DNA of 64,000 bases from Thermoplasmata archaeon. GTDB lineage: Archaea; Thermoplasmatota; Thermoplasmata; Lutacidiplasmatales; UBA184. Numbering within the stretch: the first letter of the stretch is position 1; each line of letters opens with the position of its first letter. The notes below the pieces were generated by a model that had not been told where the DNA came from, did not search any database, and worked only from the letters and a program-made list of their open reading frames with translations. The position numbers and the translations under genes were made by a program. The stretch lies in the NCBI GenBank assembly GCA_027315165.1, contig DAHUYN010000004.1, positions 15,517 to 79,516 on the forward strand, written 5' to 3'. Below, piece by piece: positions 3,298-53,339 of this stretch.

Positions 3298-5886
3298 GTG
3301 CGCCCGTGCGGAGGGCTTATCGGCCGACAACGAGTTGGCTCGGTCGTGTCGCGCCGAGGGCGCGGGAGGGCACTCCCGCCCGGCTCGCTGACGCTCGCCC
3401 TCCTGCTCCTGCTCGCAGGACTTCTCGCTCCGCAGGTGCTGTCGGGAGCGGCGCTCCCCTCGCACGCGCCGGGTCTCTCGGCGGCCGCCGCGGTTCCTTC
3501 GAGCCGTCTCGCGACGGCCTCGTCGGCCGGCGCGTGGAGCACGGCGAGCCATCGTCCCTCCCCAGGGCTCGCGCCCTACCGTCTCGCGACGGCTCCGAGG
3601 GCGGGCGCCTCCTGCCCGTTCTCGAGCTCTCCCGGCTGGCTCGCCTACGATCCGAACGATCAGGAGTTCTGGGTGGCCACGCCGCCCGATTGCGTCGATG
3701 TCTTCAACACCGGCTTCAACATGACGCAGCTCACCGCCGGGACGGACCCGTTCGGCGTCGCGGTCGACGCGGCCGCGCACGCGGTGTTCGTGACGAACAC
3801 GGGCTCGAACAACGTGACCGTGTTCAACGACACGACGCAGGCGAGCGTCGCCTCGATCTCGGTCGGGACCGCCCCTCTCGGCGTCGCATACGACCCGGCG
3901 ACCGACGAGCTGTACGTCGCGAACTCGGGGTCGAACTCGGTCTCCGTCATCTCGGTGTCGACGTTGACCGTGGTGGCGAACGTCTCCGTCGGGACCGGCC
4001 CCGCCGGGGTCGACGTCGATACCGCTTCCGGACAGGTATTCGTCGCGGACAACGGCTCGAATGCCGTGAGCGTGATCCGCACGAGCAACCACACCGTCGT
4101 CGCCACCCTTCCCGCGGGCACCGGTCCGCTCGGGGTCGCGGTCGCCACCGGGCTCGGGCTGGCGTTCGTGACCAACTACGGCTCCAACAACGTCACGGTG
4201 GTCAACGCGAGCCAGGATTTCGTCACCGCCACCATCCCCGTCGTCGGACCCGGTCTCGATCTGCAGGGTATCGCCTTCGACCCGCAGACGGGGTCGATGT
4301 GGATCGGCGCCGGGTTCTGGTACGCGGTCGTGCTCAACGTGAGCGCGCTGTCGGTGGGGGGCTACTACGCGACGGACCCGTCCGGTGTCGCCTACGATTC
4401 GACGACCGGAGAGGTCTGCCTGACGAACACCGGCAACTTCACGTTCGAGTGCCTTCGCTCGCCGTTCGACGCGTGGACGGCGGCCTTCGGAGAGTCGGGT
4501 CTTCCCCCCGGCACCGCGTGGACGGTGAGCCTCGGCAACGGAGCGCAGTCGTCGACGACGGCCTCGATCGACGTCGGAGTCGTTCCCTGGGTGTACGGGG
4601 CGGGCCAGGTCTCCTCCTCCTACACGATCCTCACGGCCGCGCCGTTCCTCCCGACGCCCGCCTCCGGGTCGATCGGGTTCTCGAATTTCGGCCCGTCGAC
4701 GAAGTGGTACAACGTGACGTTCGCCCCTTCCGCGGGGCTGTTTGCGGTGACCTTCCTCGAGAGCGGGCTCCCGCCCACGGCGAGCTGGTCGGTGACCCTC
4801 AACAACACGACGGTGCGCTCGAACGCCTCCTCGATCACGATCTACGAACCGAACGGGACAGCGCTGCCTTTCCAGGTGAGCCCCCCCGTCGGCTACACGG
4901 CGTCGCCGGCCACGGGACGGCTCACGATCGCCGGCGCGGCGGTGAACGTCTCCGTGACGTTCTCTCCGTCGGTCCCGTCGACCTCTCGCGTCAGCTTCTT
5001 CGAGACGGGCCTCCCCGTCAACTCGACCTGGTACCTCCTCGTCGCCGGGGTCTGGTACGGAGTCCCGACGGCCACGCTGTCGCTCTCGCTCCCGAACGGG
5101 ACCTACGCGTTCGCATTGGGACCCCTTCCAGGCTACGTCGCGAGTCCCTCCTCGGGGACCGTGGCGGTCTCCGGGGTTCCTGTGACGGTCACCCTCCGCT
5201 TCACCGCGTCGACGACCCCGTCGTACCTCGTGACGCTCTCGGAGTCCGGCCTACCCAGCGGGACGCCCTGGGGCGTCACGATCGGCGGCACGGTCGTGGC
5301 GGGCAGTTCGACCGCGTTCACGACCCAGCTCCCGAACGGCACCTACGCCTACGGGGTCCAGGTCGTGGTCGGCTACATACCGTCCGTCGCGCAGGGCACT
5401 CTCACGGTCGCGGGCGCGCCGGCGACGCTCGACGTCGTGTTCGCCCCGGCACCGCCTTCGCTCGCCCTTTCGGTGTCCCTCCATGAGCTGGTCGTGACGG
5501 CGAGCTGTCTCGCCAACGGGAACGTCTCGAACGTCGTCGCGCTGTCGGCCCAGGCGTCCGGCGGCCTCCCGCCGTACTCGTACTTCTGGAGCGTGCCCTC
5601 GGGCAACGCCTCCGGTCCTCTCGCCTACGCGACGATCGTCGTGACGGCCCCCGTCGCGCTTCGTTGGGTTTCCGTGACCGTGACCGACGCGTCGGGGAAC
5701 CAGACCTCCGCTTCCGTCCTGCCTCCGAGCGTTCTCCCGCCGTGTCCCCCGCCTCCGCCCTCCCCGAACTTCCCGAGCGCGACCCCGGCCGCGCTCACGA
5801 CCGTCTACGCCCTCGTGGCCCTCTCGGTCGTCGTGGCCGCGGTCGCGATCGCCGCGGTGCTCGTCGTCTACCGCAGAAAGCCGTAG
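3298..5886 (+). CDS. Secreted cell-surface protein: N-terminal signal peptide, about five YVTN-family 40-residue beta-propeller repeats, about five ~90-aa E[ST]GLPxGTxW repeat domains, a Pro-rich linker and a C-terminal TM anchor
   Basis: Signal-like LTLALLLLLAGLLAP. YVTN motifs FVTNTGSNNVTVF / YVANSGSNSVSVI / FVADNGSNAVSVI / FVTNYGSNNVTVV. Repeats FGESGLPPGTAWTVSL, FLESGLPPTASWSVTL, FFETGLPVNSTWYLL, LSESGLPSGTPWGVTI. C-terminus PPCPPPPPSP...VVAAVAIAAVLVVYRRKP. Many N-x-S/T sequons. The true start may be an internal GTG (the N-region is 30 aa long if it starts at 3298). Confidence 0.75.
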   Translation: MRPCGGLIGRQRVGSVVSRRGRGRALPPGSLTLALLLLLAGLLAPQVLSGAALPSHAPGLSAAAAVPSSRLATASSAGAWSTASHRPSPGLAPYRLATAPRAGASCPFSSSPGWLAYDPNDQEFWVATPPDCVDVFNTGFNMTQLTAGTDPFGVAVDAAAHAVFVTNTGSNNVTVFNDTTQASVASISVGTAPLGVAYDPATDELYVANSGSNSVSVISVSTLTVVANVSVGTGPAGVDVDTASGQVFVADNGSNAVSVIRTSNHTVVATLPAGTGPLGVAVATGLGLAFVTNYGSNNVTVVNASQDFVTATIPVVGPGLDLQGIAFDPQTGSMWIGAGFWYAVVLNVSALSVGGYYATDPSGVAYDSTTGEVCLTNTGNFTFECLRSPFDAWTAAFGESGLPPGTAWTVSLGNGAQSSTTASIDVGVVPWVYGAGQVSSSYTILTAAPFLPTPASGSIGFSNFGPSTKWYNVTFAPSAGLFAVTFLESGLPPTASWSVTLNNTTVRSNASSITIYEPNGTALPFQVSPPVGYTASPATGRLTIAGAAVNVSVTFSPSVPSTSRVSFFETGLPVNSTWYLLVAGVWYGVPTATLSLSLPNGTYAFALGPLPGYVASPSSGTVAVSGVPVTVTLRFTASTTPSYLVTLSESGLPSGTPWGVTIGGTVVAGSSTAFTTQLPNGTYAYGVQVVVGYIPSVAQGTLTVAGAPATLDVVFAPAPPSLALSVSLHELVVTASCLANGNVSNVVALSAQASGGLPPYSYFWSVPSGNASGPLAYATIVVTAPVALRWVSVTVTDASGNQTSASVLPPSVLPPCPPPPPSPNFPSATPAALTTVYALVALSVVVAAVAIAAVLVVYRRKP

Positions 5887-40760: not shown

Positions 40761-42158
40761 TCAGAGGAGCGATACGATCGGCTTCCCCTGCATCCGCTCC
40801 GGGAGCTCGAGCCCCATCCGCTTGAGGATCGTCGGCCCCATGTCGAGGATCGACTCCTCGCCGACCCGGCCTCGCGGCGCCCGTCCCGGCTCCGACATCA
40901 GGTAGATCCCGTCGAAGGAGTGGACGGAGTCGTCCGGTCCCGTGTCGTTCTCCGTGAGGAACAGGCTGTTGTGGCCGAGGGTTCCGGCGGACCGCCACTT
41001 GAGGTTGGCGAAGTAGACCATGAGGTCGGGCGCGTCGCCCTGGACCTCCCGATAGATCTTCGCGGGCGCGCGGACGTCCGGCCGGAGGGGCTGGCCGTTG
41101 GGCAGCGTGACCTCGGAGAGCTGCGTCGTGATCCGCTGCGTGATCGCCGGGATCTGGAAGGAGGGCAGGATCCCCTCGGGCTCGCGTCCCTTCACGTTGA
41201 AGAAGATGCGGGCATAGTAGCCGCCCGCGCCCCAGGCCGTCGTCTTGGACCAGTCGACCGAGAGCTTCTCGATCGGCGTCCCCCGCGCCGGGGCCGGAGC
41301 CTTGAGGGCGAGGTAGCCCTTCTGAATGAGCCATTCGTTGATGCAGAAGCAGCCGTCCATCGCCATGCTCCCGTGGTCCGACAGCACGAACGTCGTCACG
41401 TCGTCGCCGACGAGCTCGAGGAGCTTTCCGATCTCCTCGTCGAGCATCGTGTAGTAGCGGTCGACGAGGGCCCGGTACGAGGGGACGTCCTCGTAGCGCG
41501 GGTGGGTCGTGTCGAAGAACTTCCAGAAGGTGTGGTGGATGCGGTCCGGCCCGATCTCGTGGAGCGCGAAGAGGTCCCAAGGCTCCTTCTTCCACAGGTG
41601 GCGCGCGACGGCCCATCGCTTCTGCGTCATGTCGATGAGCTCGTTCCCGATCCTCTCCCGGTCCTCGGCCCGGAACGTGACGTCGAACTCGTAACCGCCC
41701 GCGACGCCGAGGATCTCGGGGATGAGCGAGGCCGGGGTCGCGAAGTCCTTCGCCCCGTCCGGCGTGAGGAAGTCGGAGATGTAGACGCCGTTGAGGGTGG
41801 GCGGCGGGTACCCGGGGGGCATCCCGATGACGCAGACCCGCTTGCCGGCGCGCGAGAGCAGTTCCCAGGCCGGCGGGTGCGGCAGCATCTGGGGCGTGGG
41901 CGAGTAGGTGTCCCAATAGGTCCCCGGCCTTCGGTGACGGAACCCGTAGATCCCGAGAGAACCCGGGTCCATTCCCGTGAACATGACGGCCCAGGCGGGC
42001 ACCGTGATCGGCGGGTCGCAGCTTCGCAGGACGCCGTAGCTCGCGCGAGCCATGAGCGCCCTCATGTGGGGCATCTTGGGGAGGAACTTGTCGTAGAGCA
42101 GCTCGGGAGGCATCGAGTCGAGCCCCAGCACCAGCGTGCGCGCCTTCGGGTCGGCCAT
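40761..42158 (-). CDS. Alkaline-phosphatase-superfamily type I phosphodiesterase / nucleotide pyrophosphatase-like protein
   Basis: MADPKARTLVLGLDSMPPELL start. Metal-site-like TVPAWAVMFTG and VLSDHGSMAMD. 465 aa. Confidence 0.75.
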   Translation of the reverse strand: MADPKARTLVLGLDSMPPELLYDKFLPKMPHMRALMARASYGVLRSCDPPITVPAWAVMFTGMDPGSLGIYGFRHRRPGTYWDTYSPTPQMLPHPPAWELLSRAGKRVCVIGMPPGYPPPTLNGVYISDFLTPDGAKDFATPASLIPEILGVAGGYEFDVTFRAEDRERIGNELIDMTQKRWAVARHLWKKEPWDLFALHEIGPDRIHHTFWKFFDTTHPRYEDVPSYRALVDRYYTMLDEEIGKLLELVGDDVTTFVLSDHGSMAMDGCFCINEWLIQKGYLALKAPAPARGTPIEKLSVDWSKTTAWGAGGYYARIFFNVKGREPEGILPSFQIPAITQRITTQLSEVTLPNGQPLRPDVRAPAKIYREVQGDAPDLMVYFANLKWRSAGTLGHNSLFLTENDTGPDDSVHSFDGIYLMSEPGRAPRGRVGEESILDMGPTILKRMGLELPERMQGKPIVSLL

Positions 42159-43371: not shown

Positions 43372-44385
43372 TCATGCTTCCTTTTTCATCTTCTTCGAGA
43401 GCTCCGCGGGCGCGAGGTAGTTCAGCGAGGAGTGCGAGCACTCCTCGTTGTAGTGGCGTGGCGATGTCACCAGATGGTCTCGGGTTTCCGTGAACGGCCT
43501 CGGTGGGGGCGTCCAGAGGTAGTCCATCTTGAGGTGACCGTGGTAGCTCTCGATCATCCCGTTGTCCTCCGGCCTCTTCTTGCGGATCGCCTCCACCTCG
43601 ATCCCCCCCACCTTCATGCTCTCCCGGAACACGTGTGCGATGAACTGGCTCCCGGCGTCCGACCGCAGGACCACCCCGTCGGCGCGCAGGCACCGAGGGA
43701 ACTCCCGAGCGACCGCCGCCAGGACCACGTCGATGGCCTCGGTCGCCCCGCAGTTCGGGAGGAAGCTGTACGCCAGCACCTCGCGCGTGCAGCCGTCGAG
43801 GATCGAGGTCAGCGGGCACGGACCCCGATCGGTGGTGTCGATGTAGGTGAGGTCGGTGTACCATTTCTGGTTCGGTCGATCCGCCTCGAGGACTCCCGTC
43901 GATGGAAGACGAGGGCGAGGGAAGTGGGCCGGTCGGAGGAGCCGCTCTTCCTTCATCAGCCGGTAGACCCGCTTGCGGTTGATTGTGCGACCCTCGCGCC
44001 GGAGCATCGCCCATACCCGACGGTGACCGTACGTCACCAGCTGGAGGGCGACCCGACGGACTGCGGTCCGGGTCTCGGCCTCGTCCGGCCATCGGTGCGC
44101 GACATGAGGCCGAGGTGCACAGTAGAGGGCCCGACGAGAGATCCCGGACATCCGGGTGGCCCTCGAGAGGGAGCTGATCCCGCGCTCCCGCATCGTGGTC
44201 ACGAGCTCCCTCCGTCGTTTTTTCCCACGGTGCCCTCCAGGTGCTACCGGAGGACGTCGTTGGCGATTGCGTAATCGGCGACGAGCTTCTTCAGACGCGA
44301 GTTCTCGTGTCGGAGGGCGGTCCCCGCGCTGCCCTCGCGGTTCTTCAGTCCGACCTTCATCCCGGTGAGGGCCTTTTGCTTCCAC
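43372..44385 (-). CDS. IS3-family transposase OrfB (integrase core, rve domain)
   Basis: DDE triad context: QKWYTDLTYI, VLRSDAGSQF, EDNGMIESYHGHLK. Confidence 0.85.
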   Translation of the reverse strand: MEAKGPHRDEGRTEEPRGQRGDRPPTRELASEEARRRLRNRQRRPPVAPGGHRGKKRRRELVTTMRERGISSLSRATRMSGISRRALYCAPRPHVAHRWPDEAETRTAVRRVALQLVTYGHRRVWAMLRREGRTINRKRVYRLMKEERLLRPAHFPRPRLPSTGVLEADRPNQKWYTDLTYIDTTDRGPCPLTSILDGCTREVLAYSFLPNCGATEAIDVVLAAVAREFPRCLRADGVVLRSDAGSQFIAHVFRESMKVGGIEVEAIRKKRPEDNGMIESYHGHLKMDYLWTPPPRPFTETRDHLVTSPRHYNEECSHSSLNYLAPAELSKKMKKEA

Positions 44386-44510
44386 TCATAGAACGCTGTG
44401 GAGCTGATGCCGTGACGCCGACAGATCTCGGAGACGTTCGCTCTGGGTTGGAGGCCTTCCAGGACGACCTGGAGCTTCTCCTCGGTCGACCAGACCTTGC
44501 GGGTCGTCAT
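44244..44510 (-). CDS. IS3-family transposase OrfA (HTH / leucine-zipper)
   Basis: MTTRKVWSTEEKLQVVLEGL...ISSTAFYEWKQK...LKKLVADYAIANDVLR. It overlaps orfB by 142 nt with orfB in the -1 frame. Confidence 0.75.
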   Translation of the reverse strand: MTTRKVWSTEEKLQVVLEGLQPRANVSEICRRHGISSTAFYEWKQKALTGMKVGLKNREGSAGTALRHENSRLKKLVADYAIANDVLR

Positions 44511-44730
44511 GGATACCCCGGAGGCCGGCACGAAGCCGGCAGCCCTCTTTGAGGTTCGGTCTCCCCCCAGACCCTCCTCAGCCACCCGGGCAGGTCCAAC
44601 CTACGTACGTGTGCAGTTCTGCAGGGGTACGCGCCAGCTTCCCTGCGCTCGGCCGGGCCGGTCCCTCGGTGCTTTGAACCCTTATGAACGGCTCGGGATA
44701 GGAGCGGGTCGACGTTGCGTCGGGGGGAGG

Positions 44731-45201
44731 CTACGCCGGAGTCGTCGAAATGACGACTTCCCCTACGAGATTGAACGTCCCTGCGACCGAGGGCGTCTGG
44801 ATTGTTACAACAACTGCTTGGCAGCCCAAGCACGCCTCGCCGAATGGTGCCACGCCCGTCACAGAAAACGGTGCACCTACAGACGCATTCGCAATCGTCG
44901 CCAGGACATACTGGCCGCCTGCAGCATGCTGCGGCTGCGTCTGTCCAATCAGGGTGCAGTTGAACAATGCTCCCGGGGGGAAATCCAACGGCCCGGTCGC
45001 GTAGCAGGTGCCCGAAAGAGCCGGGAACACGAGCCCTGTCGAGTTTACCGAGACGGCCCAGACCGGGGTCCACGAGAGACTGGATACCGTCATAGAACCG
45101 GGCGATTCCGCAACGTGCTGTGCGCTGAGGATGACTAGGATCACGACCGCGCTAGCGGCGAAGCCGCCGCCAATGCCCGTCATTGTGGAGCTCCTCGGCA
45201 T
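44731..45201 (-). CDS. Small secreted Cys-containing hypothetical protein (cargo between the IS fragments)
   Basis: Signal peptide MTGIGGGFAASAVVILVILSAQHVAES. Local GC is lower. A TATA-like ATTTAGCTACTATGG lies about 35 nt upstream. A same-locus plus-strand ORF is a less likely alternative. Confidence 0.4.
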   Translation of the reverse strand: MPRSSTMTGIGGGFAASAVVILVILSAQHVAESPGSMTVSSLSWTPVWAVSVNSTGLVFPALSGTCYATGPLDFPPGALFNCTLIGQTQPQHAAGGQYVLATIANASVGAPFSVTGVAPFGEACLGCQAVVVTIQTPSVAGTFNLVGEVVISTTPA

Positions 45202-45546: not shown

Positions 45547-46131
45547 CTGGCCCAACTCGACCTCCCGGGGAAGCAGATCGAGGAGGTCGAGGGGCAGCTG
45601 GTCCAGCTCGGGGTCGACGACCCGGCGGTCCAGAGGCTGATGACGCTCCCTGGGCTCGACTTCTATTCGGCGCAGGTGATTCTCGAGGAGATCGGGGACA
45701 TCACACGGTTCCCGACGGAGAGGCACCTCTCGAGCTACGCGGGGCTGGTGCCGCGCGTGATGCAGAGCGGAAACACGCTGCGCATGGGCCGGATCCACAA
45801 GCAGGGACCCCGAGCCCTTCGGTGGATTCTCACGACGTGCGCCCACGCAGCGGTGAAGGCCCCCGGGAAGTTCCAGCGGCTCTTCCGGCGGTGGGAGAAG
45901 CGGCTCGGGAAGGGGAAGGCGATCGTGGCCGTGGCGCATCGGATGATCGAGGTCATCTTCGCGCTCCTCGCACGCAACGAGGCGTACTCGGAGGAGCGGG
46001 CGGAGAAGACCCACGCCAAGATCGTCCGGATGAGAAGCCGGGCGCGAGCGCTGCCGGCTCGCGACCCTGAGACACGATGGAACGCGCTCGGCGCCGAGGC
46101 CCAGCAAGTACTAAGAGGAGCGAGAGGATGA
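45547..46131 (+). pseudogene. IS110-family transposase, C-terminal fragment (no start; begins right after an in-frame TAG)
   Basis: LAQLDLPGKQIEEVEGQLVQL...LPGLDFYSAQVILEEIGDITRFPTERHLSSYAGLVPRVMQSGN...RWILTTCAHAAV is the IS110 C-terminal domain signature. Confidence 0.7.
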
Positions 46132-46222
46132 CCGCCCGTCAGCGGGCAGGACCGCTTTCAGAGGAGTGCCGGGGGCCCGAACGCTTCCGGCCCCGCATCG
46201 GCTCCCCCGAAGGCCTTAAGCA

Positions 46223-46233
46223 CCACATATGTA
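46223..46233. repeat. 11-mer CCACATATGTA (copy 1), followed by the palindrome ATGCATATGCAT, immediately upstream of vapB
   Basis: The same 11-mer recurs at 47719-47729, and again as CCACATATGT at 47731-47740. Confidence 0.3.
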
Positions 46234-46244
46234 GATGCATATGC

Positions 46245-46457
46245 ATGTCGTCGAGGAACATCGCCGTTCGCAAGGACGTCTACGACGCACTTCGCCGGGA
46301 GAGACGACCGAACGAGAGCTTCACGAAGGCCCTCCTTCGGCTGCTCAACCAGAGGGGGCCGCTCGACGACCTTGTCGGCGTCTGGCCCGAGAAGGCGCCT
46401 GCCTCAGAACACCGGCTCCTGGCGGCCTCGAGGGTCGTTACGGGCGGTCGACGATGA
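46245..46457 (+). CDS. vapB: Type II antitoxin, VapB-like (archaeal putative-antitoxin family)
   Basis: MSSRNIAVRKDVYDALRRERRPNESFTKALLRLL is the archaeal VapB-type signature. A 4-nt ATGA overlap with vapC. Confidence 0.7.
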   Translation: MSSRNIAVRKDVYDALRRERRPNESFTKALLRLLNQRGPLDDLVGVWPEKAPASEHRLLAASRVVTGGRR

Positions 46458-46864
46458 AGGCGCTCGACACCCCTGCGCTGCTCGAGATCCTTCGAGGGCG
46501 CCCGCCCGCGAAGGCGCTCCTCCGGTCGCTCGCCGGCGAGGAGCTCGCGACGACGGAGCTGAACCTCTACGAGCTCGACAGCCTCGCCCGCATCGAGGGA
46601 CCTCGAGGCCTCGAGCGGCGCCTCACGGCGATCGAGAGGCTCCGCCGCCGCCTCACGACCCTCCCGATCGACGAGCGGGCCACGCGGGCCGCCGCCGCGG
46701 TCTCGAGAGGGCACCGACGGGGCAACGCTCGTGAGCTGTCCCTCATGCTCGGAGCCGCGGTCGCCGCCGGGTGCTCCGAGTGGATCACGACCCGGTCGCT
46801 CGCGCCGACTGAGATGCCTGGGCACCTCAAACTGAGGCTGGTCGGCCAAAGGGCCACTACGTAG
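46454..46864 (+). CDS. vapC: PIN-domain toxin VapC
   Basis: MKALDTPALLEIL (LDT..L), acidic residues at ELNLYELD, PIDERAT, LMLGAAVAAGCSEWITT. 136 aa. Confidence 0.8.
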   Translation: MKALDTPALLEILRGRPPAKALLRSLAGEELATTELNLYELDSLARIEGPRGLERRLTAIERLRRRLTTLPIDERATRAAAAVSRGHRRGNARELSLMLGAAVAAGCSEWITTRSLAPTEMPGHLKLRLVGQRATT

Positions 46865-47141
46865 TGCCTATTGCGTAACTCACACTCCTACGATAGCTAT
46901 GTCGGACAAACGGAGCGCGTTTGTCAGAGGAAACGGGCGGAAACGGCCCCCGGGCGCGTTTTCGCAGGGGAGGGGCCTACCAGGGGCCTCGACGGTCGGA
47001 TCGGTGGTTGTACTAAAGAAGGGAGTCACAGCATCGATAGATACGTTCCTGACAAGGCCCAGTAGCCCATCTCACGCACTCACCTGTCGCGTAGGGCTCT
47101 CGAGCAGAAGCCGCCGAGCGCCTGCCTCTCCTCGAGAAGTG

Positions 47142-47170
47142 GTATAACTGGAGTTATACGAACCCCTTTT
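47142..47170 (+). terminator. Perfect 7-bp hairpin GTATAAC-TGGA-GTTATAC followed by gaaccCCTTTT: candidate intrinsic terminator-like element or protein-binding palindrome in the ORF-free tract
   Basis: Read directly from the sequence. T-tracts are rare in this GC-rich DNA. Confidence 0.25.
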
Positions 47171-47718
47171 CGGCCCCCGATCGCCCTCGAGAGCCCCCCT
47201 CTCTGGACGGACGGAGAGCCCGGCCAGGGCCCCTCGCACTCGACTGGGGGGCCCGAGGGGCCGCGCTCGCTCCCCGCACCCTCACCTTGCGTATCGACCT
47301 CCCCTGGCGCGGCGGCTCGCGGGGACTGTGGCGGCTACGCCGCCCGTCGCGGACTCGCCAGGACCGGGGACGCGATGTCCGCCGAGGACGACCGCGCGTC
47401 TCGCGGATCGCGCCGCGAGTTTCGACTGCCTACCGAGGTTTGCGTGTCGCCACGCCGCGTCATACGCGGTCAGGGGGAGATCACGTGGCCAGATCCCCGT
47501 CGTGAAGCCACCTCGACTCCCCTCCCTCTGCCGAGCCGTTGCGAGTGGTGAGCTCGGTCGATGGCCGTCGCGAGTTGGAGAATATGCACTCTACAGTCAC
47601 GGTGGGTGCGCAACGGTCACGACTAAGGCATCTAGATGGCTCATCGCACCATCGGCGACTCCCGTCCTCGACCCGGACCGGACGCCGGCCAACCCGGGCT
47701 TCTCGTGGCCTCCAGAGT

Positions 47719-47743
47719 CCACATATGTATCCACATATGTGGA
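47719..47743. repeat. CCACATATGTA tCCACATATGT gga: tandem copies of the 11-mer seen at 46223; the second copy is embedded in the perfect palindrome TCCACATATGTGGA
   Basis: It lies just downstream of the stop of the minus-strand GNAT gene, at the right edge of the 880-bp ORF-free tract. Confidence 0.3.
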
Positions 47744-47751
47744 GTCGTAAC

Positions 47752-48318
47752 CTACGTTCGCGTACGCGTCTTTCGCGCTCGTTGCCACTCCCGCTTGAGC
47801 AGGCCGAAGACGAGGTCGTCGCGGGCGACACCGTCCTTGACGATCGCGCCTCGAAGCCGTCCCTCGAGGCGGAAGCCCGCCTTTTCCAAGACGTGCGCGG
47901 AGCGGTCGTTGCCGGGGAAGGTGCCCGCCTCGACGCGCTCGAGCGCGAGGGGTCCGAAGGCGAGCTCGAGCAGGCCCTCCAACATCTCGCTCGCGTAGCC
48001 GTGGCCCCAGTGCCGCACGCCCAGCCAGTAGCCCGCCTCGCCCCGCCGGTGCTCACGGTGGATCTCGTGCAACGACACGCCGCCGACCAGACGACCGCTC
48101 GAGCGCTCGATCGCCCACAGGGACAGGGCTTGACCGCGCCGGTGCTTGAGGCGCGTGCGCGCGAGCCACTCACGCTCCTGCGAGAGGGTGAGCGGATAGG
48201 GTACACCGAGGAGCCATCGAGAGACCCGGCGGTCCCGAAGCATCGCGTAGGCCTCGGGGAGGTGCCGCTCGCCCGGTCTCTCGAGACGAAGGCGCGCGAG
48301 CTCTCGAGGAAGTCTCAC
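47752..48318 (-). CDS. GNAT-family N-acetyltransferase (RimJ/RimL-like)
   Basis: 188 aa with a GTG start. ...GEAGYWLGVRHWGHGYASEML... (acetyl-CoA motif A) and ...HVLEKAGFRLEG.... Confidence 0.8.
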   Translation of the reverse strand: MRLPRELARLRLERPGERHLPEAYAMLRDRRVSRWLLGVPYPLTLSQEREWLARTRLKHRRGQALSLWAIERSSGRLVGGVSLHEIHREHRRGEAGYWLGVRHWGHGYASEMLEGLLELAFGPLALERVEAGTFPGNDRSAHVLEKAGFRLEGRLRGAIVKDGVARDDLVFGLLKREWQRARKTRTRT

Positions 48319-48534
48319 CGAAGCGAAGGAGCCAGGAGGGTCTACGATGTCGAGCTCAGCGTTCTCCGCGCTATACGGTTTCCCGACAGAGTCCCTCGAA
48401 GCCGTTGTTCAGACTCGCGCGAGGGAGACGGGAGGCGCTGGACATTCGACCTCCGGTAAAAAGCCCTATTATCTCCCGGCGCGCATGGGCCCGTGCAGCC
48501 GGGACTCCCGTCCACGCGTTGCAGAGAGACAGCA

Positions 48535-49976: not shown

Positions 49977-50181
49977 ACGATCCCTCGAGCCAAAGGCTCG
50001 CCGCGGCGGAGCCGGCCACCGTATTTGGGCTCTTGGAGGTCCCGCGCCGGCGACACGACCCCGGTCGGGGACCGGGCCCGGTCCTCGCCGAAGCCACGCC
50101 AGTAGAGGAATTAAATAGGCGAAGAGAAGGGCGGCGTACCACCGGGTGTCGCCGTTGGAGAGGGAGGGGTCCGCGGAGCCC

Positions 50182-50226
50182 GAGCCCGCCCCGAACGAGC
50201 CCGCCCCGAACGAGCCCGCCCCGAAC
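50182..50226. repeat. Perfect tandem repeat, 3 x 15 bp (GAGCCCGCCCCGAAC)
   Basis: Read directly. It would encode EPAPN x3 if translated in the flippase frame. It sits between the divergent VOC and flippase genes. Confidence 0.9.
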
Positions 50227-50247
50227 GCCTCCCGTCTCGACGAGACG

Positions 50248-51837
50248 CTCCGCAGCATGAGCCGCGGGACGTCGGTGATGGTCGTCGCAACGCTCCTCGT
50301 CGTCGTCCTGCAGTTCTTCACACGCGCGATCGTCACGCGCAACGTCACGACGGACCAGTGGGGCGAGTTCAACCTCGGCTTCTCGCTCGCCTCCCTCCTC
50401 GCCCTCACCGCCGCCTTCGGGATCCCGACCGCGACCGCGAGGTCGCTCGCCTTCGAGCAGACGCTCGAGGCGCGGTTCGCGCTCGTGCGCAAGGCGATCT
50501 ACGTGAGCGTCCCGGTCGGGGCCGTCGCGGGCATCTTGGTCTACGTCTTCGCCGGCGCGATCGCCGCGCCGTTCGCCAAGGCCGGCCAACCGAGCCTGAC
50601 GCCCGTCTTCCAGCTGTTCTCGGTGAGCATCGCCCTGACGATGCTCTCGAACGTCCTCGTCGGGATCTTCCAGGGGCTCGAGCGGGCCGAGCCGTACGCG
50701 ATCTTCATCCAGATCGTCAACCCCGCGCTGTTCCTCGCCTTCACCGCGGCGCTCCTCGGGCTCCGGGCCGGGTTCGAGGGTGTGCTGATCGGCTACGTGC
50801 TCTCCTGGGTCGGCTCGTTCGCCGGGCTGGCCGTCTACACCTATCGCCGACTGCCCCCGCTCCTCCGCCGCCTCTCGACGAAGGAGTTTACGGGGGATGC
50901 GAGCGGTCGCGTCCCCTTCGTGGCCCTCTCGGTGACGCTGTTCGGCGTCGCCGCGCTCTCCTACGTCACCTCCTACGCCGACACGCTCTTGCTCGGCGTG
51001 TTCCGCGCGGCGACCCCCGTCGGCGAGTACTCCTCGGCGATGACGCTCACGCGGCTCCTCCTGGTCGGGACCGGTACGGTGACGTTCATCTACCTCCCGA
51101 TCACCTCGAGGCTGCGACGGCAGCGCGACTTCGAGGGCCTCCGGTCGACCTACATCACCGTGACGCGCTGGATGACCCTGCTCGCGGTCCCGTTCACGTT
51201 CGTCTTCTTCTTCGATGCCCGGTTCTCGCTCGCGTTCTCCTTCGGCCCCCTCCAGGTCGGCGGGAGCCAGGCCCTGATGATCCTCGTGGTCGCGAACACG
51301 CTCGCGATCGCGCTCGGCCCCTCCGTCTCGACCCTCGGCGGGCTCGGAGAGACGCGCCTGGTCCTGTGGTTCACCGTTGTCTCCGCCCTCTCGAACGTGG
51401 TGCTCTGCTTCGTCCTCATCCCGCCCTACGGGCTCGTCGGGGCCGCCGTGGCCTGGTCCGTCGCCCGGCTCGTGTTCCCCGCGCTCGCCCTCGCGAGGAT
51501 CTACCAGGAGCACCGCATCACGCCCTTCGGGCGCACCTTCGTCCGGCCCTCCCTGCTGAGCCTCGCCATCCTGCTGCCCGTCTTCGTCTTCCTCCTCCCC
51601 CGTCCGACCCTGATCTGGCTCCCGATCCTCGTCCTGTTCCCGCTCGTCGTCTTCCTCGGCTCGATTCTCCTCCTCCGGTGCGTCGAGCCGGGGGACCTCC
51701 ACTTCGCGATGACCCTCGAACGCCGCCTCGGCCCGGTCGCACGACCCATCCGTCGGCTCCTAGAGGCCCGCCTGGTCCCCGGCTCCGTGGTCCCCGAGAG
51801 CCTCCCGCCGCGTCGTCCGCGCGGACCGCCGCCCTAG
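50248..51837 (+). CDS. Polysaccharide biosynthesis protein / oligosaccharide flippase (MOP superfamily, Wzx-like), second copy
   Basis: 12 or more TM helices, a few tens of residues longer than the gene at 15290, with the same family layout. The start could instead be at 50146, which would include the tandem repeat. Confidence 0.7.
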   Translation, partial: LRSMSRGTSVMVVATLLVVVLQFFTRAIVTRNVTTDQWGEFNLGFSLASLLALTAAFGIPTATARSLAFEQTLEARFALVRKAIYVSVPVGAVAGILVYVFAGAIAAPFAKAGQPSLTPVFQLFSVSIALTMLSNVLVGIFQGLERAEPYAIFIQIVNPALFLAFTAALLGLRAGFEGVLIGYVLSWVGSFAGLAVYTYRRLPPLLRRLSTKEFTGDASGRVPFVALSVTLFGVAALSYVTSYADTLLLGVFRAATPVGEYSSAMTLTRLLLVGTGTVTFIYLPITSRLRRQRDFEGLRSTYITVTRWMTLLAVPFTFVFFFDARFSLAFSFGPLQVGGSQALMILVVANTLAIALGPSVSTLGGLGETRLVLWFTVVSALSNVVLCFVLIPPYGLVGAAVAWSVARLVFPALALARIYQEHRITPFGRTFVRPSLLSLAILLPVFVFLLPRPTLIWLPILVLFPLVVFLGSILLLRCVEPGDLHFAMTLERRLGPVARPIRRLLEARLVPGSVVPESLPPRRPRGPPP

Positions 51838-52490
51838 CCCGACCGGACGGTCCCGGGCGCCTGGCGCTGCCGCTGGAACTCGAGGGCGCGCCGCAGCACC
51901 TCGTCGAGGTCCTCGATCCCCTCGAGGGTGGCGACCCCTCCCGGAGCCCGACGGTCGGGCTCGGCCGACGGGACCATGTGGAAGCCGAACCGCTCGACGA
52001 TGGTCCTCGAGGCGGCGTTGTCACCGAGGACCGTCCCGCCCCCTCGCCGAACGCCGAGCTCGAGGCAGCTCCGGTACATCTCGATCGCGAGCGCTGTGCC
52101 GATCCCCCGACCCCGGTGGCCGTCGGCGACGAGGTAGCCGAAGCGGCCCCAGACGGGTTGCCCCGGTCGGGCGACGAACCGGATCGTCGCGTAGGCGCAG
52201 GGGGCCGCAATCGTCTCGGGGACGGCGACGAACACGAGGAACGTCAGGTTCGGCACGCGACGGAGAAGTCGGCGCGCCCAGCGCCTCGTACCCACCATCC
52301 AGAGGAAGAGCGGCACGAGGCGGAGCCGGTCCCGCGGGTACGGGTGGTGGAACCGACGGGCCTCGGCGGAGATCCCTCGGTAGAGTCGAACGAGCGCCGG
52401 GACGTCGCGAAGCCTCGCGGCCCGCCATTGGTAGCCGCGAGGGAACGGCCACGGCGCCGGGGGGTCGATGCGGGACGAATCGGCAGCCAT
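51834..52490 (-). CDS. GNAT-family acetyltransferase with a ~100-aa N-terminal extension (paralog A)
   Basis: HRGRGIGTALAIEM (motif A), FGF. A TATA-like CTTCTATACT lies 26-33 nt upstream of the ATG. Confidence 0.7.
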   Translation of the reverse strand: MAADSSRIDPPAPWPFPRGYQWRAARLRDVPALVRLYRGISAEARRFHHPYPRDRLRLVPLFLWMVGTRRWARRLLRRVPNLTFLVFVAVPETIAAPCAYATIRFVARPGQPVWGRFGYLVADGHRGRGIGTALAIEMYRSCLELGVRRGGGTVLGDNAASRTIVERFGFHMVPSAEPDRRAPGGVATLEGIEDLDEVLRRALEFQRQRQAPGTVRSG

Positions 52491-52682: not shown

Positions 52683-53339
52683 ATGCCCACCGAGCCCACG
52701 ACCCCGGCCGCCCCTCCGCCGAGCGGGCCGCGTCCCGAGGTCGACATCCGCCCGGCCCGATGGCGGGACCTGCCGACGCTCGTCCGGCTCTATCGGAGCC
52801 AGCCTCCCGCGTCGCGGGCCCTCTACCATCCCTTCCCGTTCGACCGACCTCGGCTCTACGCGATCTTCGCCTACATGGTCGCGACGCGGCCGTTCCTCAA
52901 GGGGATGGTCCGCCGAGGACGGTCGCGGACCGCCGTCCTCCTCGTCGCCCGCGTCGGGGGGTCTCGCCGCCCGATCGGCTACGGCAACGTGGCGTTCCAT
53001 CACGTCGAGGGCCACCCGCACGCGATCTTCGGCTACCTCGTCGACGAGCGCGCTCGCGGCCACGGCGTCGGGACCCGGCTCCACGAGGTGATGATCGACG
53101 AGGCGCTCCGCCTCGGCGTCACGAAGGGCGGCGGAATGGTCGTGGTCGAGAACACCGCGAACGTGCGGATCCTCGAGAAGCTCGGATTCCTCCTCACGCG
53201 CTCGGACATCGTCGACGCCGGAGCGCCCACCTCCGCCAACTACGTCTCCGAGGGCGACCTCGAGGCGATCGCCCGTCGGATCCGCGAGGGGCGCGTCGCC
53301 CCGAGCGGCCCGGACGCGGGCACCCCGGCTCCGCACTAG
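52683..53339 (+). CDS. GNAT-family acetyltransferase with an N-terminal extension (paralog B)
   Basis: It shares ARWRDLPTLVRLYR...YHPFPFDRPRLYAIFAYMVATR with paralog A (ARLRDVPALVRLYR...HHPYPRDRLRLVPLFLWMVGTR). Motif A ARGHGVGTRL. Confidence 0.7.
   Translation: MPTEPTTPAAPPPSGPRPEVDIRPARWRDLPTLVRLYRSQPPASRALYHPFPFDRPRLYAIFAYMVATRPFLKGMVRRGRSRTAVLLVARVGGSRRPIGYGNVAFHHVEGHPHAIFGYLVDERARGHGVGTRLHEVMIDEALRLGVTKGGGMVVVENTANVRILEKLGFLLTRSDIVDAGAPTSANYVSEGDLEAIARRIREGRVAPSGPDAGTPAPH

Follow-up and report, generated by a model that had tools for sequence, protein, structure and literature searches.

Why is a toxin-antitoxin operon in a GC-rich archaeal genome followed by several hundred base pairs of DNA without a gene, and why are both enclosed by related repeats? 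The question is raised by a 64,000-nt stretch of a Thermoplasmata archaeon of the Lutacidiplasmatales (GenBank assembly GCA_027315165.1, contig DAHUYN010000004.1), here called the window, which has a GC content of 70.3%. It contains a vapBC operon and, downstream of it, a tract without a credible open reading frame (ORF). A first-pass annotation had regarded the repeats at the two ends of this module as possible antitoxin operators or, alternatively, as possible boundaries of a 1.5-kb mobile cassette or sites related to an adjacent IS110 relic, and had supposed that the tract may hide a non-coding RNA. Comparison with related loci led us to a different view of the tract. We tentatively propose that it is the dif locus of this lineage and includes accessory DNA of fixed geometry; it would adjoin a vapBC operon that is inherited vertically, with VapB-type arrays bounding the whole on either side.

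Fixed-spacing sites and a dif-like palindrome downstream of vapBC

Relatives were collected in two sets. A search with the downstream aminotransferase (BCAT) yielded 19 Thermoplasmata genome loci with 67–80% protein identity; the closest genomes are labelled Lutacidiplasmatales, and one of the retrieved loci carries the label Candidatus Lutacidiplasmatales. A VapB profile added 80 further loci from soil and peat metagenomes. The vapBC operon lies upstream of BCAT, in the same orientation, in 13 of the 19 genome loci, and these 13 as well as the 80 metagenome loci contain the same module, i.e. vapBC, both repeat arrays and a palindrome. The three recurring non-coding landmarks are an array before vapB, the palindrome GTATAAY-N4-RTTATRC, which is found 855–908 nt 3′ of the vapB ATG across the relatives, and a second array further on (Table 1).

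Both genes of the operon have clear Pfam matches and share an ATGA start/stop overlap, confirming the annotated VapBC module. The arrangement of a small antitoxin gene and a PIN toxin gene in one operon is that of type II toxin-antitoxin systems, and about 90 loci have the two genes in this order, with VapB identities that range from 47 to 89%. The VapB homologs are named CopG-family antitoxin or VapB family in the source databases. In a set of 78 VapC homologs, D5, E30 and E40 never vary, and at least 94% retain D73 and E109. VapC shows no obvious third and fourth Asp motif of the usual kind; the sequence reads ...WITTRS where the fourth Asp is expected. An AT-rich box (TTAAAT, CTAATAC, TTTATCA and similar) is present at the same distance from vapB in every locus examined, and the location of the TATA-like box of the window implies that the vapB mRNA is leaderless or nearly so. 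In one relative (L011, positions 4437–4841), vapB is frameshifted and vapC is matched only as two separate pieces; despite the broken operon, the palindrome and both arrays (one mismatch in the left, two in the right) are still there.

The tract is indeed free of genes. Between 46865 and 47751, no third-position GC periodicity was found in any frame, the ORFs had no match in Pfam, and no relic was detected of vapB or vapC or of the DUF429 and membrane-protein genes that some relatives have beyond the palindrome. The tract had also been described as lower in GC. This holds for its average (65.3%, compared with 70.3% for the window), but only the first 277 nt are poorer in GC (60.3%), and the remainder has a GC content of 70.3%.

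For the region from the vapC stop codon to the palindrome, an alignment of 66 distinct sequences (A3) was generated. The approximately 260 bp after vapC are AT-enriched and contain islands of conservation, in the order Box 1, motif A, Box 2, motif Z, and palindrome. Between the islands the sequence varies freely, and the distances are constant. Box 1 and motif A are separated by 60–63 nt in 49 of the 66 sequences (otherwise mainly by 30, 38–39, 48–50, or 72 nt), motif A and Box 2 by 108–110 nt in 50 sequences, and Box 2 and the palindrome by 86–87 nt, likewise in 50. The last distance is mainly 55–60 nt in eight sequences, including L013–L016, and 98–99 nt in the window (98 nt), L003, and L039. 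The alternative spacings are off by about 10–12 or about 30 nt, i.e. by roughly one to three helical turns. The CG core of Box 2 is kept in 65 of the 66 sequences. Single-base length changes occur, which rules out that the tract is coding. The first-pass annotation had rightly expected a function for the tract; the tract is conserved, and its conserved features look like phased DNA sites that end in a recombinase-type palindrome. According to our proposal, the tract would act as DNA, with a motif spacing that roughly preserves the helical phase, and the phased motifs would be accessory or boundary DNA, like the accessory sequences of cer and psi or the boundary region that surrounds the Thermococcus dif.

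No element of the module is more strongly conserved than the palindrome. All 65 distinct sequences have GTATAA and TTAT unchanged, even though VapB identity drops to ~47%; the palindrome's four central bases are free to vary, as are, in some sequences, the two adjoining bases. From this pattern, a conserved housekeeping partner seems more likely than the co-evolving local protein that the arrays point to (see below). The palindrome is intergenic and unique in the window (0.01 copies expected), and 710 kb of related DNA contain one copy per locus. The 28-mer around it has the consensus GCGGCGTATAA-CACGAG-TTATACGnCC, or GNGGCGTATAA-N6-TTATRCGNCC in degenerate form, and thus consists of arms of about 11 bp and a 6-bp spacer, with TAA-N6-TTA at the centre.

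This is the structure of archaeal dif sites, the hallmark and most conserved feature of which is TAA-N(6-8)-TTA in imperfect inverted repeats (PMC11840125). The dif site of Thermococcus kodakarensis, TTTTGATATAA-TGTACC-TTATATGACAA, to which XerA binding was shown by chromatin immunoprecipitation, is located in an unusually AT-rich, gene-free intergenic region of ~1.9 kb, and the DNA around it has a function of its own as a chromosome-domain boundary (PMC11840125). The dif site of Pyrococcus abyssi, ATTGGATATAA-TCGGCC-TTATATCTAAA, has the same 11+6+11 structure (PMC4640148). The dif sites of Thermococcales have conserved AT-rich flanks and inverted repeats (PMC2958812, PMC4640148), which were proposed to be binding sites for partners (PMC2958812). 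The 28-mer of the window shares 14 of the 22 arm positions with the T. kodakarensis site. The 28-bp imperfect inverted repeat would be the dif site of the chromosome, at which the tyrosine recombinase XerA would resolve chromosome dimers. Under the 11+6+11 reading of the 28-mer, the substitutions (C to T, G to A) that would disrupt the closing pair of a hairpin are spacer changes.

Two genomes, L013 (~19095) and L014 (~19101), have a further, weaker TAA-N6-TTA dyad, CTAATATAAGATTCCTTATTCTATCC, 11–14 kb downstream of the module. This dyad recalls Thermoplasma acidophilum, which reportedly has two XerA-binding sites.

Table 1. Coordinates of the module, of inserted elements, and of slot genes in related loci (L numbers denote loci with their own coordinates; all other positions refer to the window)
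Feature	Position	Strand	Remarks
TATA-like box CTTAAG of the vapB promoter	46215–46220	+	−30 to −25 from the vapB ATG; putative promoter role
Left array CCACATATG-TAGATG-CATATG-CAT	46223–46246		putative VapB operator; overlaps the vapB ATG
vapB, antitoxin, 70 aa	46245–46457	+	Pfam PF02697, E 7e-9
vapC, PIN-domain toxin, 136 aa	46454–46864	+	PF01850 (PIN), E 2.8e-9
Box 1, degenerate AT-rich dyad, consensus AGTAAYG-N7-CRTWAC	46860–46879		overlaps the vapC stop codon; A3 columns 65–84
Motif A, consensus of relatives GGAGAACGTCGGAAA, here AGAGGAAACGGGCGGAAA	46926–46943
Box 2, second copy of the AT-rich dyad, here AGCATCG-ATAGATA-CGTTCCT	47030–47050		A3 columns 328–348
Motif Z, consensus TTCTCTGACGGAGCGGC, here CCTCTCCTCGAGAAGTG	47125–47141		directly left of the palindrome
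dif-like 28-mer AAGTGGTATAA-CTGGAG-TTATACGAACC	47137–47164		candidate XerA site; read 11+6+11
Core palindrome GTATAAC-TGGA-GTTATAC	47142–47159
Variable slot, no gene here	47165–47717		GC at genome level, not conserved
Right array TCCACATATG-TATCCA-CATATGTGGA	47718–47743		perfect 10-bp arms, 6-bp spacer; right end of the module
IS3-family element, apparently complete	43372–44585	−	absent here in related genomes
IS3 orfA (HTH_Tnp_1; Logan gene call)	44244–44585	−	overlaps orfB, usual frameshift arrangement
IS3 orfB (HTH_21 + rve + rve_3)	43372–44385	−
156-aa ORF, hydrophobic N-terminus	44731–45201	−	between the IS pieces; no Pfam match
IS110 relic	45640–46131	+	C-terminal Transposase_20 domain only; N-terminal catalytic domain missing
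DUF429 gene directly after the palindrome	L008 5039–5833, L009 8921–9538, L010 9042–9620, L011 5773–6465, L017 413–1042, L047 3221–3871
Membrane-protein gene (MANKGRR..., Pro/Thr-rich tail)	L052 1682–2365, L062 5055–5738, L075 1176–1856, L094 5001–5705, ~15 others	−	no Pfam match above threshold

Two CATATG arrays and a variable slot

The repeats had been described as an 11-mer, CCACATATGTA, that occurs once before vapB and twice in tandem at the right end. Exact copies are present at 46223–46233 and 47719–47729, but the supposed second tandem copy (47731–47741) is CCACATATGTG, the last base of which is G instead of A. With up to one mismatch, four matches are found in the window, compared with 0.02 expected from dinucleotide shuffles, and only two comparable array matches were found outside the module in 459 kb. 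The repeats are real and more than a chance recurrence. The two palindromes described with it, TCCACATATGTGGA (47730–47743) and ATGCATATGCAT (46235–46246), are both present. All four CATATG hexamers of the 64 kb fall in the two sites (0.92 expected in the whole window), and each site is better described as CATATG-N6-CATATG, i.e. as two hexamers 12 bp apart. The two sites of the window match at 19 of 21 positions as an inverted repeat, which says little about their orientation because each is near-palindromic. The arrays of other clades consist of three to five hexamers with a period of 6 bp, e.g. CATATTCATATGCATATACATG or ATTCATATTCATATGAATATGAAT.

Of 86 unique loci, 83 have the left array in the same register, with its start exactly 19 nt before the vapB ATG. 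The array fills the gap between the TATA-like box and the start codon. In archaea, a repressor that binds in the gap between the TATA box and the start of a leaderless gene blocks the recruitment of the polymerase. The right array is found 1.2–2.1 kb 3′ of the vapB ATG in 35 of the 39 loci with enough sequence. The two arrays co-vary: the average agreement is 19.1 of 28 positions within genomes versus 18.4 between genomes (permutation p ~0.0004). The co-variation, together with the confinement of the arrays to the module in ~0.7 Mb of DNA of this lineage, suggests that a single protein encoded at the locus co-evolves with the two arrays, and the obvious candidate for it is VapB. Position, register, and co-variation of the arrays thus favour the antitoxin operators of the first-pass annotation, with VapB as the putative ligand. 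Both arrays would be bound by one module-specific protein, the likeliest candidate being the CopG-family VapB alone or together with VapC. Binding at the left array would repress the leaderless vapBC transcript, and the right array would offer this protein a second site where the module ends.

The reading of the arrays as the ends of a cassette did not stand up to the comparison with relatives. The neighbourhood from a phosphodiesterase to BCAT, and the orientation within it, are constant across the order. In the relatives, the left neighbour of the vapB promoter is a phosphodiesterase-family gene, the window copy of which is located at 40764–42158. The insertion sequence (IS) element of the IS3 family, the 156-aa ORF, and the IS110 relic are missing in the relatives and are therefore later insertions upstream of the promoter. 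In relatives that have neither the IS3 element nor the IS110 relic, both arrays are present in the same order and next to the same neighbours, and the three insertions are unconnected with the arrays. The orientation of the right array relative to the left one is direct in 22 cases, inverted in 16, and equal or ambiguous in four; because of this inconsistency, the right array is not a terminal inverted repeat. No target-site duplication flanks the arrays. The VapB profile had no match in viral contigs, and blastn of positions 46100–47800 had none in plasmids and phages. A palindrome scan of viral contigs gave four matches, about the number estimated for chance, and one of these that was looked at lies in unrelated DNA with 51% GC. 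The module is thus chromosomal, vertically inherited, and conserved across an order of soil Thermoplasmata, and it is not a recent insertion.

A cassette of about 1.5 kb, be it similar to a miniature inverted-repeat transposable element, similar to a dif module and mobilised by Xer, or related to IS110, is therefore largely refuted, and we regard it as very improbable. The arrays do resemble recombinase sites, above all the right one with its arms and spacer, they coincide with the limits of conservation, the genes flanking the module differ between genomes, and the gene content within it varies by clade. In contrast, synteny across the order, a single copy per locus, the mixed array orientation, the missing target duplication, the lack of copies on viral, phage and plasmid DNA, the late arrival of both IS elements, and the exact register of the left array with the vapB start codon all argue against mobility.

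The region between the palindrome and the right array varies in length from ~330 to ~1,180 nt across loci. In the clade of the window it contains neither a gene nor conserved sequence. In a clade comprising L008–L011, L017, and L047 it contains a DUF429 gene on the + strand (Pfam E 6.9e-11), the coding status of which is clear from the distribution of substitutions over the three codon positions (59:15:14). DUF429 is a predicted RNase H-fold nuclease, and it may be no coincidence that the gene lies beside a putative recombination site. In about 20 metagenome loci, the region contains a gene on the − strand for a membrane protein of ~240 aa with several hydrophobic segments; this gene converges on vapBC, and its stop codon is 30–80 nt from the palindrome. 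The region is thus a slot for clade-specific genes that is empty in this genome. Its content has changed as the order diversified, and the right array has stayed at the far end. Insertion beside a recombination site would explain the pattern, and differential loss would do so equally well; at the far border of the slot, no second dif-like site was found. Two independent Logan assemblies of essentially this sequence (SRR13766252 and SRR10333326; 99.9–100% identical) end at 47370 and 47395, within a part of the slot that has 77–78% GC. Loss of coverage at extreme GC or strain variation could account for these ends.

Other explanations of the tract

The main rival is a structured RNA. The ~280 nt from the vapC stop codon to the palindrome could be a + strand RNA, either a long 3′-untranslated region of vapBC or an independent non-coding RNA, with the palindrome as terminal hairpin or terminator. 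A fixed length combined with a variable sequence would be in agreement with this, as would the U-rich stretch that follows the palindrome hairpin in the window and several relatives. A small GC hairpin after motif A changes its sequence and keeps its pairing potential (GGC:GCC, CGC:GCG, CCG:CGG, GGCC:GGCC), and G-U mispairs outnumber A-C mispairs on the + strand (121 vs 71). The folding energy of 29 sequences is, on average, below that of dinucleotide shuffles, but the z values of the + strand (−1.70) and the − strand (−1.64) are equal, and equal stability on both strands is what dyad-symmetric DNA sites would give. A covariance-model scan with Rfam gave no match at gathering score in the window, and only two chance-level matches at E ≤ 10 in 46100–48500; ARAGORN detected no tRNA or tmRNA. 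With all 66 sequences, RNAalifold predicted only the invariant palindrome (seven pairs), with no pair changed on both sides, and subsets of 17 and of 36–38 sequences, aligned with MAFFT or in anchored ungapped form, gave nothing beyond it, although the variable parts of the tract align poorly, so that weakly structured elements might escape detection. Box 1 and Box 2, regarded as helices, pair in 67% and 57% of the cells, respectively, and the central pair is A-A in about one third of the sequences. Overall, the named helices pair in 74.7% of the cells, compared with 73.6% after shuffling, and changes on both sides are no more common than in shuffles. No terminator-like site was found. The expectation of a hidden RNA is thus not supported, and we consider such an RNA unlikely. 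Averaged pair probabilities pointed to a long-range pairing of motif A with motif Z, which was rejected because the duplex (−14.1 kcal/mol) is no more stable than that with a shuffled partner (−13.8 kcal/mol).

A further explanation is that ordinary transcription signals make up the palindrome and the AT-rich boxes, i.e. a symmetric TATA element and operators that serve the variable genes downstream or are remnants of their control, and that the right array is the relic of a second VapB-controlled promoter. TATAA and TTATA do resemble the TATA boxes of the lineage, and a TATA-like box similar to that of the vapB promoter precedes the right array in some genomes (GTTATAATCCACATATG in L014, CCCTTACTCCACATATG in L013). 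In one clade, the DUF429 gene starts on the + strand 70–130 nt after the palindrome. However, this distance varies from ~70 to ~500 nt over all DUF429 loci, and the palindrome is invariant also where no gene follows or where the next gene converges on it. Most right arrays have no TATA-like box, and the identity and direction of the adjacent genes are not constant; furthermore, a relic would not persist in 35 of 39 loci. Taken together, this explanation is improbable, somewhat more so than the RNA. Least of all do we expect the tract to be a replication origin, in which the AT-rich boxes would serve for unwinding or for initiator binding. An AT-enriched, conserved intergenic region with dyad motifs and with purine and A/T skews of opposite sign on its two sides might suggest one, but the ten flanking ORFs within ~9 kb do not include orc1/cdc6, all their family matches being metabolic or IS, the AT-rich stretches are short, and no repeat resembling an origin recognition box with a G-string is present. 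The skew signal stems from the same few syntenic genes, which are repeated in all loci.

Several observations weigh against the proposed dif locus with its VapB arrays. The copy counts given above are limited to the 64-kb window and 710 kb of related DNA. The GC skew in the window has no clear switch, and an inversion of the oligomer (4-mer) skew at the site is confounded by the shared synteny of the flanks. No xerA was found among the ten flanking ORFs scanned within ~9 kb; dif and xerA are usually unlinked. In a genome with 70% GC, an operator or a TATA element that works in both directions could account for TATAA-N6-TTATA equally well. The assignment of VapB as a ribbon-helix-helix protein comes from family annotation: its AlphaFold2 model (coil, helix, helix) has low confidence (predicted local distance difference test 64.7), a Foldseek search was uninformative, and a profile search of the PDB gave one marginal match only. 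The scarcity of TATA-like boxes at the right arrays and the heterogeneity of the genes beyond them belong here as well; no conserved gene adjoins the right array across genomes. The same is true for the hairpin after motif A and the excess of G-U mispairs, which would favour an RNA. For these reasons we hold the dif assignment to be a plausible proposal that falls short of being probable.

Comparison with known systems and neighbouring features

The candidate site has much in common with the archaeal dif/XerA systems (P. abyssi, T. kodakarensis, dif2 of T. acidophilum), i.e. a 28-bp imperfect inverted repeat with 11-bp arms, a 6-bp spacer, and TATAA-N6-TTATA, an intergenic and locally unique location, and strong conservation with a varying spacer. 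Like the Thermococcales sites, it lies in an extended intergenic region that is gene-free and AT-enriched and has conserved motifs in the flanks (PMC2958812, PMC4640148, PMC11840125). In contrast, the outer arms are GCGGCG... here, and TTTTGA... or ATTGGA... there. In addition, the candidate site is flanked on one side only by ~260 bp with motifs at fixed spacing, and we know of no archaeal dif described with such a flank. It also differs in its physical coupling to vapBC and its bracketing by CATATG arrays.

The combination of a core site with a few hundred base pairs of one-sided non-coding DNA is reminiscent of cer and psi, which consist of a XerCD core and ~180 bp of accessory sequence for ArgR/PepA or ArcA/PepA, and at which a fixed spacing of the sites is important. 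In cer, the accessory non-coding DNA likewise lies on one side of the recombinase core (PMC5357621). The tract has both the one-sided non-coding DNA and the fixed spacing, but it is chromosomal and archaeal, and its motifs are unrelated in sequence, so that the likeness is one of architecture only.

The left end of the module resembles autoregulated type II VapBC and ribbon-helix-helix systems (FitAB, omega-epsilon-zeta), in which a small antitoxin gene overlaps a PIN toxin gene and palindromic repeats cover the promoter and the start. Ribbon-helix-helix repressors bind arrays of short repeats in direct or inverted orientation, and the repressor of omega-epsilon-zeta binds heptad arrays. The units of the putative operators are hexamers of the CATATG type with a periodicity of 6 or 12 bp. 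Further differences are that a second array is located 1.2–2.1 kb away and is tied to no promoter, and that the module is single-copy and syntenic across the order, whereas the vapBC family is normally seen as patchy and mobile.

In the pdif modules of Acinetobacter plasmids and in integrative mobile elements exploiting Xer (IMEX) at dif, a Xer-type site is located beside a variable gene slot, and toxin-antitoxin genes are among the linked genes. The slot described here similarly adjoins a Xer-type candidate site, has lineage-specific gene content, and is linked to a toxin-antitoxin operon. In contrast to pdif and IMEX, it has no second dif-like site at its far end and no evidence of movement, and the bracketing repeats are of another type than the dif-like palindrome.

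Should the palindrome be dif, it would be the first dif assigned in this uncultured high-GC lineage of soil and peat Thermoplasmata, and the first archaeal Xer site with an accessory region of fixed geometry next to a toxin-antitoxin operon that is inherited vertically. XerA does not require FtsK, and how its action is restricted to chromosome dimers is an open question; phased sites with a locally encoded candidate DNA-binding partner would make this question directly testable. A bolder version of the proposal, to which we give little credence, is an archaeal dif with cer/psi-like accessory DNA that is functionally coupled to VapBC: the antitoxin, bound at both ends, would loop or insulate dif or would tie toxin expression to dimer resolution in the manner of a checkpoint, and the slot would be the archaeal counterpart of IMEX and dif modules. 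Irrespective of dif, a single-copy, syntenic vapBC operon with two co-evolving putative operator arrays 1–2 kb apart is unusual. If the palindrome is not dif, the mobile cassette is nevertheless removed from consideration, and ~260 bp of strongly constrained non-coding DNA remain.

Beyond the right array, three paralogous GNAT acetyltransferase genes are located within 6 kb (47752–48318, 51837–52490, and 52683–53336). The first of these abuts the array, its stop codon being 8 nt away, and is missing at this place in the 13 related genome loci; an exact-protein look-up for GNAT gave no match. Between the first and second paralog, the N-terminus of a polysaccharide-biosynthesis protein (50146–50260) opens with the tandem peptide repeat EPAPNEPAPNEPAPN.

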